A program made the position numbers and the translations under genes. This document shows, one piece after another, positions 4,145 to 61,009 of a stretch of 64,000 nt of DNA (its first letter is position 1; each line of letters opens with the position of its first letter). The notes beneath the pieces are model-generated. The model did not search any database. It saw nothing but the letters and a program-made list of their open reading frames with translations, and was not told where the DNA came from. Origin of the DNA: a virus (Duplodnaviria > Caudoviricetes); IMG/VR virus record IMGVR_UViG_3300048854_000081, positions 1 through 64,000 of that record; one strand, 5' to 3'.

Positions 4145-4467
4145 TGGTAATGGTTCGTATCGATCCCTCCGACATGTATAGTAGTATGGGAGCATTCTTC
4201 GGATATCCTAAGTGCTGTATTGACGCACTTTTTGACTGGGATAAGAAGAGTAGCCATTCAGAATTTCATGGGACAGGTTTCGTTCCGTGTAAGGAATGTG
4301 CTAAGAAACCTTATGATGAACTTCTTGCTGAAATACAGAGTAACCGCGTCTGTAAGACACCATTTCCTAACGGTACGTCTGTTGGTAGACGTGGACCGGA
4401 CGATGATTACGCACCCTTTACTACTGAATATTTGGATTATCTTGCTGGGTTGACCGAAAATGAATGA
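4135..4467 (+). CDS. Cys-rich GYPxCC protein, paralog 2
   Basis: FGYPKCC...PCKECAKKPYDEL...RVC..PFPNG. Confidence 0.8.
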   Translation: MGVMVMVRIDPSDMYSSMGAFFGYPKCCIDALFDWDKKSSHSEFHGTGFVPCKECAKKPYDELLAEIQSNRVCKTPFPNGTSVGRRGPDDDYAPFTTEYLDYLAGLTENE

Positions 4468-4765
4468 AGAGAAGAAAAAGAAGCCACGCAAGCCTGTCGA
4501 TATTCGAAAGGCGACTAACCGTGCCCTGACCGATGTCAAAATCTTCAAGGCAATGACGGGTACCATTCATGAGAGATTTGCTACAGCCATGCATTACGGT
4601 ATGTCTCTGATAACTGACGAATGGAATGCATGTTTCAAGCTTCTTAACGAATTGATCGCCAGATGGCCGGAACAATCTGAAGAGACCGAAGAGAATCGTG
4701 CTCGATTGCTCACATGGCTGATCGAGGAATCTCGTAAGGATGATTTTGTCGAACAGTTGACATAA
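4460..4765 (+). CDS. hypothetical protein
   Basis: ORF track, coupled to neighbours. Confidence 0.7.
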   Translation: MNEEKKKKPRKPVDIRKATNRALTDVKIFKAMTGTIHERFATAMHYGMSLITDEWNACFKLLNELIARWPEQSEETEENRARLLTWLIEESRKDDFVEQLT

Positions 4766-7416: not shown

Positions 7417-7728
7417 ATGCTGGGGAGTGATATGACATACTTAGGCTATGTGATCATTGCGTTATACATTCTTTTAGGAATCATCATCCATTACATTTAC
7501 CTGAAGGATCGTCATGAAATTCTTAACGATCCGGATGTTAAAGAGACATGGATGAAGAGTGAGTTGCAATTCCACTGCACCAAGGAACGTATTGAACATT
7601 TGCTTAAGACGTTTGCAGACATTGCAGGTTTCGTGGTAGCATTACTTTGGCCGTTTTTTCTGCCGTATTTCATTTACGCAGAGATTCGGGATAAAACCAA
7701 AGAGTACGAAGACAAAGATAAACGTTAG
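7417..7728 (+). CDS. membrane protein
   Basis: Two TM segments, LLWP motif; ends TAG. Confidence 0.7.
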   Translation: MLGSDMTYLGYVIIALYILLGIIIHYIYLKDRHEILNDPDVKETWMKSELQFHCTKERIEHLLKTFADIAGFVVALLWPFFLPYFIYAEIRDKTKEYEDKDKR

Positions 7729-7839
7729 CTCTGTGATAGCTAGGGGACTACCCCGAAAAGATTAGCGGTGCGAGTCCGCTCTAGGGCATAGTGCCAACCC
7801 TGCAAATAGACTATGCGGGTGCAAATCCCGTCAGAGAGT
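7729..7839 (+). ncRNA. tRNA-like RNA with two T-arms
   Basis: CTCTGTG/CAGAGAG; AGCGG-TGCGAGT-CCGCT and GCGGG-TGCAAAT-CCCGT. Confidence 0.6.
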
Positions 7840-7842
7840 GTT

Positions 7843-7982
7843 TTAGAGAGCCGGGTAGCAATGGGTGCCAGTGAGTCCCAGTGTAGGTATGACTGAAGCG
7901 ATGGACGATATCTGAGGTGGGTTCGACTCCCACATTACATCGTCAATGTGGGAGGTTCGACACCTCCGCTCGGTCTCTCTAA
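7843..7982 (+). ncRNA. tRNA-like RNA with two T-arms
   Basis: Closing stem TTAGAGAGCCGGG/CTCGGTCTCTCTAA; GTGGG-TTCGACT-CCCAC and GGAGG-TTCGACA-CCTCC. Confidence 0.65.
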
Positions 7983-7989
7983 TGTTTTG

Positions 7990-8129
7990 GGGAATATGAC
8001 GGAACTGGACAGACGCGCGGGCTAGGCAACACCTCTTTAGAGGATATCCACTTAGGGAGAAAGGAGCTAAACCGGCCGCAATATGCTAAGTCATAAAGCT
8101 TGTGGGTTCGAATCCCACTATTCCCACCA
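7990..8129 (+). ncRNA. Leu-type tRNA scaffold with expanded, branched anticodon arm
   Basis: GGGAATA/TATTCCC-A-CCA, Leu-like D arm ACGGAACTGGACAGACG, canonical T arm, ~50-nt insert. Confidence 0.75.
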
Positions 8130-8178
8130 TTTTACACGACTTGACAGTTATATTTTAGATGGTATAGTATTTCAATAA

Positions 8179-8249
8179 ATCGGATCATCTAGGTAGCAAG
8201 ACTTCCTTGTAATTTGAGGAAGAACGTTGGTGAAAGGCCAACTCCGATG
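8179..8249 (+). ncRNA. degenerate tRNA-like RNA
   Basis: ATCGGA/TCCGAT, CTTCCT-9nt-AGGAAG, GTTGG-TGAAAGG-CCAAC; follows a promoter. Confidence 0.5.
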
Positions 8250-8257
8250 AAGGTTAT

Positions 8258-8400
8258 GGGGCAAAGTGGTGGGTTGGAAACCACACCGCCACTATCAGGC
8301 GGCAGGCCATGGTTGACTATGAGGGCGCACAGTACACGCGTTCAAGATTAGTCTGACCCTCTGGACTTATAGTAGGTTCGAATCCTATATTGCTCCACCA
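8258..8400 (+). ncRNA. 143-nt RNA with Ala-identity acceptor (G3.U70, A73, CCA)
   Basis: GGGGCAA/TTGCTCC-A-CCA, GTAGG-TTCGAAT-CCTAT; interior not tRNA-like. Confidence 0.7.
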
Positions 8401-8432
8401 ATTTCACAACACAAACCAAACAGGGTAACATT

Positions 8433-19628: not shown

Positions 19629-19708
19629 ACCAAGCCCCAGCAATGGGGCTTTTCTTTGCCAGTAATAAAAGCAACAAATAAATAGTTAAACAATTTTACG
19701 GTAATGTT

Positions 19709-26818: not shown

Positions 26819-26892
26819 TGGCGGCTCGTGTCGGATTTGCGCCGACCTAGACGGATTTAGAGTCCGTTGCACTACTACTGTACCAACGAGCC
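26819..26892 (-). tRNA. amber suppressor tRNA (CTA), Cys-like body with G73
   Basis: Reverse complement GGCTCGT...ACGGA-CTCTAAA-TCCGT...ACGAGCC-G-CCA. Confidence 0.85.
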
Positions 26893-26898
26893 ATGAAA

Positions 26899-26975
26899 TG
26901 GTGGGAATAGTGGGATTCGAACCCACGACACGGGAATTTAGAGTTCCTTGCTCTAACCAACTGAGCTATATTCCC
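26899..26975 (-). tRNA. amber suppressor tRNA (CTA), canonical class I body with A73
   Basis: Reverse complement GGGAATATAGCTCAGTTGGTTAGAGC-A-AGGAA-CTCTAAA-TTCCC...TTCGAAT...ACCA. Confidence 0.9.
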
Positions 26976-41858: not shown

Positions 41859-41886
41859 ACCTTACGCAAGCGTTAGGACTTCTTTT
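41859..41886. repeat. dispersed repeat R1, copy 1
   Basis: ACCTTACGCAAGCGTTAGGACTTCTTTT; also at 51341 and (22-bp core) 51434. Confidence 0.85.
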
Positions 41887-42287
41887 CAAAGGCCAGCGAA
41901 ATAGCTTGTATAGGGAACGTACCCGACATGTTCAAATCCTTCGCGTTGAAAGATTTTGGTATCGGAGTGTCCAGCTATCTGATTATACTTGTCCTTCCCA
42001 TACTTTGCAAGTTGGGTTCCTATACGTTGGCCTCTAGCTTTGGTTCTGGTATAGAGGTGTTGGATGGGGACGGGTCGTTGTTTGAATTTCATAATGAGTG
42101 CCCACCCTAGGATGGTATCATCATCTTCGATATAGGCGACCTCAGCATACTCCACGGAGGGATTGCCTTTGCGACATGCTGCGATGGCGTCTTGCATCTC
42201 TCCACGTTTACGGTAATTTAACCCATGGAGTTTCGAATAGATTGAGCTTGGTAGTTCCTGAACGGAACATGAACGAAGTTGCTGCAT
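41886..42287 (-). CDS. GNAT-family acetyltransferase-like
   Basis: LYTRTKARGQRIGTQL acetyl-CoA motif. Confidence 0.75.
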   Translation of the reverse strand: MQQLRSCSVQELPSSIYSKLHGLNYRKRGEMQDAIAACRKGNPSVEYAEVAYIEDDDTILGWALIMKFKQRPVPIQHLYTRTKARGQRIGTQLAKYGKDKYNQIAGHSDTKIFQREGFEHVGYVPYTSYFAGL

Positions 42288-42509
42288 AAAACCTCAAAGT
42301 ATTGCATATGGTTTCAAAACTGTCAAGTGCTTCACTGATACCTATTCAGGTTCCATTTAGAAACCGAGTTCCTTACGGCTCATAGGCCGAAGGGATGAAA
42401 TCCCTTAATCTAACGTTAAGGTTGGACCAGATGGGCCATCATGACATTATTTGATGACTGCTGGGTAAACGGTTCTGTTTTATTAAGCTACCGTTCAGGT
42501 TAGGTCTGG

Positions 42510-42536
42510 TAAAATAGGGTGGAGGATGGAGAAGCT
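42510..42536 (+). repeat. dispersed motif R2 (TAAAATAG...GGATGG..AGC), copy 1
   Basis: Also 51980, 52914, 56347 (+) and 59323, 62327 (-). Confidence 0.75.
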
Positions 42537-42647
42537 GGTAGGTAATCTCTCTGTTGCAATGTATTTCAATCTGTTGTACTTTGCATTGCAAAGATTCGCT
42601 ATAGCGAATATACTGTTAGTAACTGGACTTTCTATAGGAGACATGAC

Positions 42648-56293: not shown

Positions 56294-56450
56294 ATCATTA
56301 GGGAACCTTCGGGTTCCCTTTTGTTTGCAAATTGCATTACATATGCTAAAATAGGGTCGTGGATGGGAGAGCTTCACGGAATTTGTGCGACGCAACTTGT
56401 TAATTTCTGTCCAGTGTTGTAAATATACTGAAACAGAGGATCACAGTTCC

Positions 56451-56624: not shown

Positions 56625-56844
56625 GACCGAACTAGACGCCATGGTCACGAAAGACCCTAGCAAAATGGTCAACTTCAAACCTTACATTATCGAAGCCAAG
56701 GACATCACTCTAACCGTGGTGTTACATCCTATATGGGCTAAGACAGTGTACGATGCATTCCAACAATGTCTTATGAATTTCCCAACGGATATGATCACGG
56801 CCATCTATTCGCTAACCGATCCGGACAACCTGAACGTAGCCTGA
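56617..56844 (+). CDS. hypothetical protein
   Basis: ORF track. Confidence 0.6.
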   Translation: MYKTELDAMVTKDPSKMVNFKPYIIEAKDITLTVVLHPIWAKTVYDAFQQCLMNFPTDMITAIYSLTDPDNLNVA

Positions 56845-56913
56845 ATTTACCCTATTGCATTCTGTTAGAAAACCTGTAGACTACTTACATCGACTAACCA
56901 AACGGAACCAGCC

Positions 56914-57036
56914 ATGTACGAGTCAGCTAAGAACTTCGCGATGAATCCGGGTAACCCCTACGTTGCCGCTGCGTTCTATGGTGCTGTATGGGCTGGTATC
57001 TATGTGGTGATGTATCAGTGGGTCATCCATCACTAA
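56914..57036 (+). CDS. 40-aa membrane peptide (not in track)
   Basis: MYESAKNFAMNPGNPYVAAAFYGAVWAGIYVVMYQWVIHH after promoter. Confidence 0.6.
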   Translation: MYESAKNFAMNPGNPYVAAAFYGAVWAGIYVVMYQWVIHH

Positions 57037-57071
57037 GCTTGACATTCAAACAATAAGTAGTAAACTGAAAT

Positions 57072-57584
57072 TGTCGTCGGGAACCAATGAGACAATCGAT
57101 GACGGAGCCGAGAGGGAATTAACCCTCACACCTGACCCAGCACTGTAGAACGGCAACAGCCTAATGACTGGGATAGACGATAGGATAGAGCTTATATGTC
57201 CTTACCGCGACGGGTCTTGATGCCAATAAGCTTAGGCATGTAGGTAGGTGGGCTATCACTGAAAAACTTGATGCGGTATCCCTAGAATAAGCCTCTAGGG
57301 CGCTCCACCCCCAGCCCACCATGGCCCCATGGTGCCCTAAATGAACCGAGCGCTCTGCGCCATTTAGACCTTAGTAAAAGTGAGGGTGACATCATGTAGC
57401 GACGCTAACCAAATTTGGATGATGACAAAATTCTGATAAAACTTGACGTTGTAAGGGGCTGTACCAGTCGCCAGTAGCGTGGACAGCAAATTCATCAACT
57501 AACCTAGGTGGCGTGTCATGTAACGTCTCAATTCAGGAGCCCTAGAGGCTATAGAAGCGATACATCATAGACTAAGCGACACGG
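57072..57584 (+). ncRNA. ~520-nt large structured ncRNA
   Basis: Promoter TTGACA-16-TAAACT at 57039, many stems, no ORF of 60 aa, terminator 57585-57612. Confidence 0.75.
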
Positions 57585-57612
57585 AAAGCCCCTTAATAGG
57601 GGCTTTTCTTTT
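57585..57612 (+). terminator. intrinsic terminator
   Basis: AAAGCCCCT-TAAT-AGGGGCTTT followed by T-tract. Confidence 0.85.
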
Positions 57613-57684
57613 GTTCAGAATAGGGGGTTGCATCTGTTATCAAACCCTGTATAATGTATTTCAACAACCCAATGGATCGAAGCC

Positions 57685-58050
57685 ATGAACGACTATTCCA
57701 AGTATTACCCGCTGATCGACAAGCTGGCTACGGAAGATTTCGCCCGTCGCCATCCCGGTAACGTTAAGATGGGCTTCTCCAAGCGCATCGACTTTCAAGA
57801 CGGTGGCAAGCTGATCAAGATGGTCAGTGTGGACCTGAACGATGGCGTGGAAAACGAGTATGGTCGTTCGGTCTATGGTTTCATTGTCAAAGAAGACAAT
57901 ACCATCAAGAGCGCGACCACGGGTGCCTTTTTCAAGGCTGGTGACCTGTTGAAGGCCGCAGGCTGGAAGGCTCCCGCAAAGAACTTCGCTCGTGGTAACA
58001 TCCACGACCTGAACGACGACTCCAAGTTGCCCTATACGGGTATCGGTTGA
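57685..58050 (+). CDS. phage hypothetical protein
   Basis: SVYGFI...GDLLKAAGWKAPAK..ARGNI. Confidence 0.8.
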   Translation: MNDYSKYYPLIDKLATEDFARRHPGNVKMGFSKRIDFQDGGKLIKMVSVDLNDGVENEYGRSVYGFIVKEDNTIKSATTGAFFKAGDLLKAAGWKAPAKNFARGNIHDLNDDSKLPYTGIG

Positions 58051-60933: not shown

Positions 60934-61009
60934 GGGTCGATAGCTCAGTTGGCAGAGCACGGGACTTTTAATCCTGCGGTCGCGGGTTCGAATCCCGCTC
61001 GACCCACCA
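60934..61009 (+). tRNA. tRNA-Lys(TTT)
   Basis: CGGGA-CTTTTAA-TCCTG, CCA. Confidence 0.95.

Follow-up and report, generated by a model that had tools for sequence, protein, structure and literature searches.

The stable RNAs C and D of phage T4 lie within the T4 tRNA gene region, are about 120 to 140 nt long, are processed from tRNA precursor transcripts, and have no known function. A second kind of accessory unit is the phage moron, which, as reportedly defined by Hendrix and colleagues, is an autonomous promoter-gene-terminator unit situated between conserved genes. Classical morons encode proteins and were described in temperate lambdoid phages. ROOL and GOLLD, both represented by Rfam families, are large ornate RNAs of phages and prophages that have been visualized by cryo-EM (bioRxiv 10.1101/2024.12.08.627333).

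The locus described here belongs to a 350,036-bp IMG/VR virus record, of which the first 64 kb (64,000 nt) form the window that we analyzed. Its portal protein shares 84% identity with the portal of G001, an uncultured relative of 340 kb, and 53% with those of XacN1 and Xoo-sp13, two Xanthomonas jumbo phages; the phage is an XacN1-like, T4-related jumbo myovirus. XacN1 carries tRNA genes in its long terminal repeats, and the paper that describes it mentions neither promoters nor non-coding regions (PMC5852040). In our window, Rfam scanning and ARAGORN detected 12 to 13 tRNA genes. Six tRNA genes fall between 44 and 62 kb, the nearest to the locus being at 60934, 3.3 kb away. Between 44 and 64 kb, the window consists of small genes in series on the plus strand, each with an upstream sigma-70-like promoter, and is also rich in intrinsic terminators.

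At positions 57039 to 57612 of the window lies a stretch that shares features with each of the systems above. Like a moron, it has its own promoter and terminator, is absent from the same slot in syntenic relatives, is lineage specific, and lies in an accessory region between genes that sit closer together in a relative than they do here. It differs from morons in that a protein-coding gene is missing, its cargo having no coding capacity, and in that its carrier is a T4-related jumbo myovirus. With ROOL and GOLLD it shares a size class of roughly 500 to 800 nt and a phage carrier, and perhaps a neighborhood with tRNA genes, the closest of these being 3.3 kb off; in contrast to them, it matches neither model, has no diverged homolog in the collections searched that could show covariation, and displays no excess folding stability. 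As with T4 RNAs C and D, the stretch is a candidate gene for a non-coding RNA other than tRNA, located where a T4-related phage bears its early tRNA genes, although it is ~540 nt long and has its own promoter and terminator, and no sequence relation to the T4 RNAs is expected.

Transcription signals and coding capacity

The following features, all on the plus strand, define the locus.

56855..56882, plus strand: promoter-like site TTGCAT-16-TAGACT upstream of the small peptide gene, read from the sequence
56914..57036, plus strand: gene for a 40-aa hydrophobic peptide, an ORF with a coding score of +0.20 per codon and homologs in relatives
57039..57066, plus strand: sigma-70-like promoter TTGACA-16-TAAACT, from a consensus scan (10 of 12 positions matching), predicted start at ~57073
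57073..57612, plus strand: predicted non-coding transcript of ~540 nt, bracketed by promoter and terminator and without coding potential; its transcription is putative
57290..57301, plus strand: 5' arm AGCCTCTAGGGC of a 12-bp helix, from the inverted-repeat search (I3)
57539..57550, plus strand: 3' arm GCCCTAGAGGCT of the same helix, the two arms together closing a 269-nt domain
57583..57615, plus strand: intrinsic terminator with an 11-bp stem, a 4-nt loop, and a T-run (stem, loop, and T-run at 57583-57608)
57628..57655, plus strand: promoter TTGCAT-16-TATAAT, read from the sequence, preceding the 121-aa gene
57685-58050, plus strand: 121-aa DUF7717-like gene, coding score +0.32 per codon

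A preliminary description of the locus, made from the letters of the DNA, had assigned the non-coding unit a promoter and a terminator of its own, and our scans recovered both signals, at 57039-57066 and 57583-57608. The -10 element of the promoter matches the consensus at four of six positions. The 3' arm of the terminator and its T-run also occur at 19645, 25879, 59299, and 67735 of the genome, so the terminator is one of the standard designs of this phage. The consensus promoter scan listed neither the 56855 site nor the 57628 site; the spacer of the former repeats the spacer of the latter (repeat D3).

Because the 57628 promoter lies between the terminator and the 121-aa gene, that gene should be independent of read-through from the stretch. 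We therefore rejected a terminator-based leader or riboswitch of the 121-aa gene; in addition, none of the Rfam cis-regulatory matches rose above noise, and the homologs of the 121-aa gene in relatives have no leader.

The same preliminary description had reported no ORF of at least 60 aa on either strand of 57039-57612, which our analysis confirmed: the longest ORF encodes 53 aa and is on the minus strand, and the plus strand has no ORF of 30 aa or more. In a ribosome-binding-site search for short ORFs, the only candidates were of 15 and 8 aa, with weak motifs, and neither was plausible. Scored with a codon-usage model trained on the long genes of the phage, all six frames of the stretch had negative log-odds, whereas all eight neighboring genes, the 40-aa gene included, scored from +0.08 to +0.32 per codon. 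Recoding was examined because the phage encodes two tRNAs with the amber-reading CUA anticodon (26819-26892 and 26899-26975, minus strand, by ARAGORN). Reading TAG as Q or TGA as W opened no convincing frame in the stretch, and the TAG-readthrough frames scored from -0.18 to -0.24 per codon. A decayed gene was also sought, by tblastx searches of the phage's own genome and of the corresponding loci in relatives and by tblastn with the membrane proteins that occupy the slot in L038 (78 aa) and G001 (74 aa), and no match was obtained. This lack of translated similarity to the neighboring genes of relatives speaks against a recently decayed local gene. The stretch is non-coding. Since a promoter and a terminator bracket a region that contains no gene, the stretch probably makes a non-coding RNA.

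Across the genome, the high-scoring ORFs end in TAA (261), TGA (144), or TAG (12); TAG stops may be avoided because the phage brings suppressor tRNAs. By a crude codon-score gene call, the genome is ~90% coding, with no fewer than 12 further gaps that reach 500 nt. The same call yielded several stretches of 700 to 1,500 nt without a convincing ORF (G000 336393-337884, 221654-222454, 41870-42647, 179379-180149, 203596-204335, 212494-213220, and 7729-8432); the two inside the window (41870-42647 and 7729-8432) are also without tRNA.

The same slot in related phages

Using searches with the flanking proteins, we recovered the syntenic region from four relatives (G001, L032, L034, and L038), and the stretch was absent from all four. 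In G001 (locus L031), where the homolog of the 242-aa gene is 57% identical, the peptide homolog (L031 8940-9035) is followed at once by a promoter that drives a 76-aa gene. The -35 block of the 57039 promoter, GCTTGAC(A/T)TTCA, is kept in G001 at the same place, directly after the peptide gene. L038, the most syntenic relative, has, in this order, homologs of the 79-aa and 75-aa genes, a small peptide, a 78-aa membrane protein, and a homolog of the 121-aa gene. The 78-aa gene takes the place of the stretch in L038, and no trace of it is present in our phage. Given this gene in the slot of the closest syntenic relative, we regard the stretch as a lineage-specific, moron-like cassette. The slot itself is hypervariable, and the stretch is a lineage-specific replacement set between an older promoter and a standard terminator.

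Two further elements of the region are shared among these phages. Three related phages keep the hydrophobic peptide, of 31 to 40 aa, in the same place but have different genes downstream of it; the homologs (window 56914-57036, L031 8940-9035, and the L038 ORF ending at 7465) have in common an AGIY/AIYVV...Y.W-like C-terminal part. At the head of the 79-aa gene, the motif TAAAATAGGGT(C/T)GTGGATGGG(A/G), a -10 box with a G-rich start, is kept in the window (56345-56370), L031 (8505-8535), and L038 (6780-6800).

In the same neighborhood of L032 and L034, a hydrophobic peptide ORF of 21 aa is directly followed by a non-coding unit of ~150 nt that opens with a promoter (CTTTACA-17-TAAGAT) and closes with a strong terminator (L032 ~4440-4640, L034 ~4440-4650). 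The unit is 93.5% identical between the two phages, in contrast to 67 to 69% for the adjoining small ORF and promoter, a pattern that makes the unit a candidate conserved phage small RNA and suggests that non-coding cassettes under selection occur in this lineage. This gives indirect grounds for a higher prior on a genuine RNA gene at our locus. The L032/L034 unit (L032 about 4470-4625) resembles the stretch in extending from promoter to terminator directly after a hydrophobic peptide gene and in adjoining the 121-aa DUF7717-like gene; however, it has a third of the length, is placed on the opposite side of the 121-aa gene, and exceeds its flanks in conservation. No similarity was detected between the stretch and the non-coding units of the relatives. 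G001 has a 310-nt ORF-free stretch (L031 9686-9995) behind a TTGACA promoter and directly upstream of the 74-aa membrane-protein gene, likewise with no similarity to the stretch in the window.

Homology searches and folding

DNA searches detected no homolog of the stretch among INPHARED/GenBank phages or plasmids, and within its own genome the stretch matched only itself. Five related IMG/VR records returned just 17- to 28-nt noise, nhmmer found no diverged homolog across the retrieved loci of the relatives, and pattern scans of viral, metagenome, and genome contigs gave 0 matches. The only other copy was on a Logan contig (L035), at 100% identity, with no diverged copy in the collections searched. 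With no homolog in these collections, there is no sign of selection on the stretch. Searches for antisense targets within the phage genome returned only 12- to 14-mers at chance level.

The preliminary description had placed the RNA either in a divergent branch of a class such as ROOL or GOLLD or in a new class, and had named a cmscan search against Rfam as a check. When that search was run with all 4,227 families of Rfam 15, no family matched the stretch at its gathering score. A permissive rerun (E ≤ 10) on both strands of 56800-57800 gave only weak, terminator-centered matches and a snoRNA-like chance match. ROOL, GOLLD, HEARO, OLE, 6S, RNase P, tmRNA, intron, and riboswitch RNAs as modeled by Rfam were thus without a match, and ARAGORN found no tRNA or tmRNA in the stretch. 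Membership of the stretch in ROOL or GOLLD is accordingly not supported.

We then considered folding, since the RNA had been characterized as highly structured on the strength of a list of helices. Each of those helices is present in the sequence, and such helices occur at about chance frequency. The full stretch gave a minimum-free-energy z score of -1.9 for the plus strand (-1.07 for the minus strand), and trimming off promoter and terminator changed this to -1.26 (-0.07 for the minus strand). For comparison, a control set of 60 random segments of 269 nt from this genome, most of them coding, had a mean z of -1.30 (sd 1.21), with a third of them at z ≤ -2. On average, then, a random segment of this genome is 1.3 sd more stable than its dinucleotide shuffles, so a folding z score here must be judged against a genomic control and not against a zero baseline. 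By that control, the body of the stretch (-1.26 versus -1.30) sits at the genomic folding background, and the claim of high structure did not hold up. Complementary 7-mers (14 observed versus 6.8 expected) and 8-mers (7 versus 1.6) were in excess; however, 6 of the 14 7-mers stem from one 12-bp helix, apart from which the counts are near chance. In practice, listing helices for a gap free of ORFs does not amount to evidence of structure.

That 12-bp helix, a perfect long-range pair between 57290-57301 and 57539-57550, is the one notable helix of the stretch and was absent from the earlier list. The 350-kb genome contains 17 perfect pairs of at least 12 bp with arms 60 to 500 nt apart, which corresponds to p of ~0.03 for a stretch of this length. 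In its place, the list had given its local alternative, the CCCTAGA/TCTAGGG hairpin (57281-57300). The 5' arm of the long helix overlaps the 3' arm of this hairpin, making the two pairings mutually exclusive, an arrangement that would be compatible with a conformational switch. The 269-nt domain closed by the helix scored z = -3.27 when folded as plus strand and -2.0 as minus strand, with boundaries picked post hoc from the helix itself; 5 of the 60 random genome segments reached z ≤ -3.27.

Interpretation of the locus

An orphan phage non-coding RNA or a long 3' untranslated region (UTR) is a plausible overall description of the stretch. More specifically, we put the chances at about even that it is a functional, discrete non-coding RNA produced from a moron-like cassette. 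The cassette would be a lineage-specific accessory in the tRNA-rich early region of an XacN1-like jumbo phage, composed of a host-type sigma-70 promoter, ~540 non-coding nt, and an intrinsic terminator typical of the phage. Most likely, host RNA polymerase would transcribe it early into a discrete RNA running from 57073 to ~57612, and transcription from the promoter that serves the 40-aa peptide gene upstream (56855-56882) may add a longer form. The RNA would most likely act in trans on a host or phage factor, and the sole candidate for a structural core is the ~270-nt domain closed by the 12-bp helix, in competition with the local 7-bp hairpin. Transcription, the discreteness of the RNA, and any function are what we infer from these signals in the DNA. 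The boldest version, in which the locus is the first member of a class of "RNA morons" whose ~540-nt product has a 270-nt domain switching between hairpin and 12-bp helix and acts early on a host factor, is improbable in our judgment.

Several observations weigh against a functional RNA, namely its orphan status, its background folding energy, the four-of-six match at the -10 element, and the 12 or more other gaps of at least 500 nt. Moreover, a promoter and a terminator would equally remain after a cargo gene had decayed or been replaced. On that account, the stretch would be non-functional filler, left between a kept promoter and terminator when the cargo gene was lost or replaced and passively transcribed without selection, as might fit an orphan in all collections searched, folding at genome background, in a slot that is hypervariable among relatives and whose matching promoter in G001 drives a 76-aa gene. 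We consider this the most serious rival, though on balance an unlikely one: no frame retains a coding signal or protein similarity, phage genomes usually purge junk (this one being ~90% coding), and the long-range 12-bp helix would be unexpected in random DNA.

The stretch could instead be the long 3' UTR or a cis element of the 40-aa membrane-peptide mRNA, controlling that mRNA by pairing between 56972-56986 and 57138-57152 or giving rise to a 3'-UTR-derived small RNA adjacent to the terminator. The terminator scan detected no terminator between the peptide gene and 57583, so transcripts from 56855-56882 would read through the stretch to its end. A 15-nt inverted repeat (I2), 87% complementary, joins the peptide ORF to the stretch at these positions, and L032 and L034 likewise have a promoter and a non-coding unit directly behind a gene for a small hydrophobic peptide. 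However, the duplex energy between peptide mRNA and stretch was no better than chance, being reached by 56 of 300 shuffles and 18 of 100 other genomic segments, and the peptide genes of L038 and G001 lack a tail of this kind. This explanation is distinctly less probable than filler. A type I toxin-antitoxin pair was rejected on the same chance-level duplex and because the two elements share a strand, with no cis-antisense overlap.

The large ornate RNA favored by the preliminary description, whether a divergent form of ROOL or GOLLD or the founding member of a new class of that kind, would agree with the size of ~540 nt, with a phage neighborhood where tRNA genes and odd RNA genes abound, and with the stronger folding of the helix-closed domain on the plus strand than on the minus strand. 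Even so, no Rfam family matched above noise under permissive filters (E ≤ 10), helix counts were near chance apart from the 12-bp helix, the folding score of the domain, with its post hoc limits, was equaled by random segments, and a single-sequence covariance model of three central hairpins found no match in the relatives G001-G003. We regard such an RNA as very unlikely. An equally remote reading, in which the stretch works at the level of DNA, as a pair of protein-binding sites or a T4-like R-loop type origin behind the promoter, could draw on the 12-mer GCCCTAGAGGCT, present as two identical inverted copies separated by 237 bp, on its partial third copy (CCCTAGA) at 57281, and on the AAAACTTGAYG repeat (D2) at 57263 and 57438, but the stretch has no AT-rich unwinding region (GC ~48%), no iterons, and no tandem repeats (the sole array, 56977-56995, is inside the upstream peptide gene), and the 12-mer has no other copies in the genome.

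XacN1-like jumbo phages already carry tRNA genes and further odd RNA genes in their terminal regions. Should the discrete RNA of the moron-like cassette prove real and functional, their accessory repertoire would gain a large non-coding RNA, and moron-type cassettes would be seen to be capable of carrying RNA as cargo.
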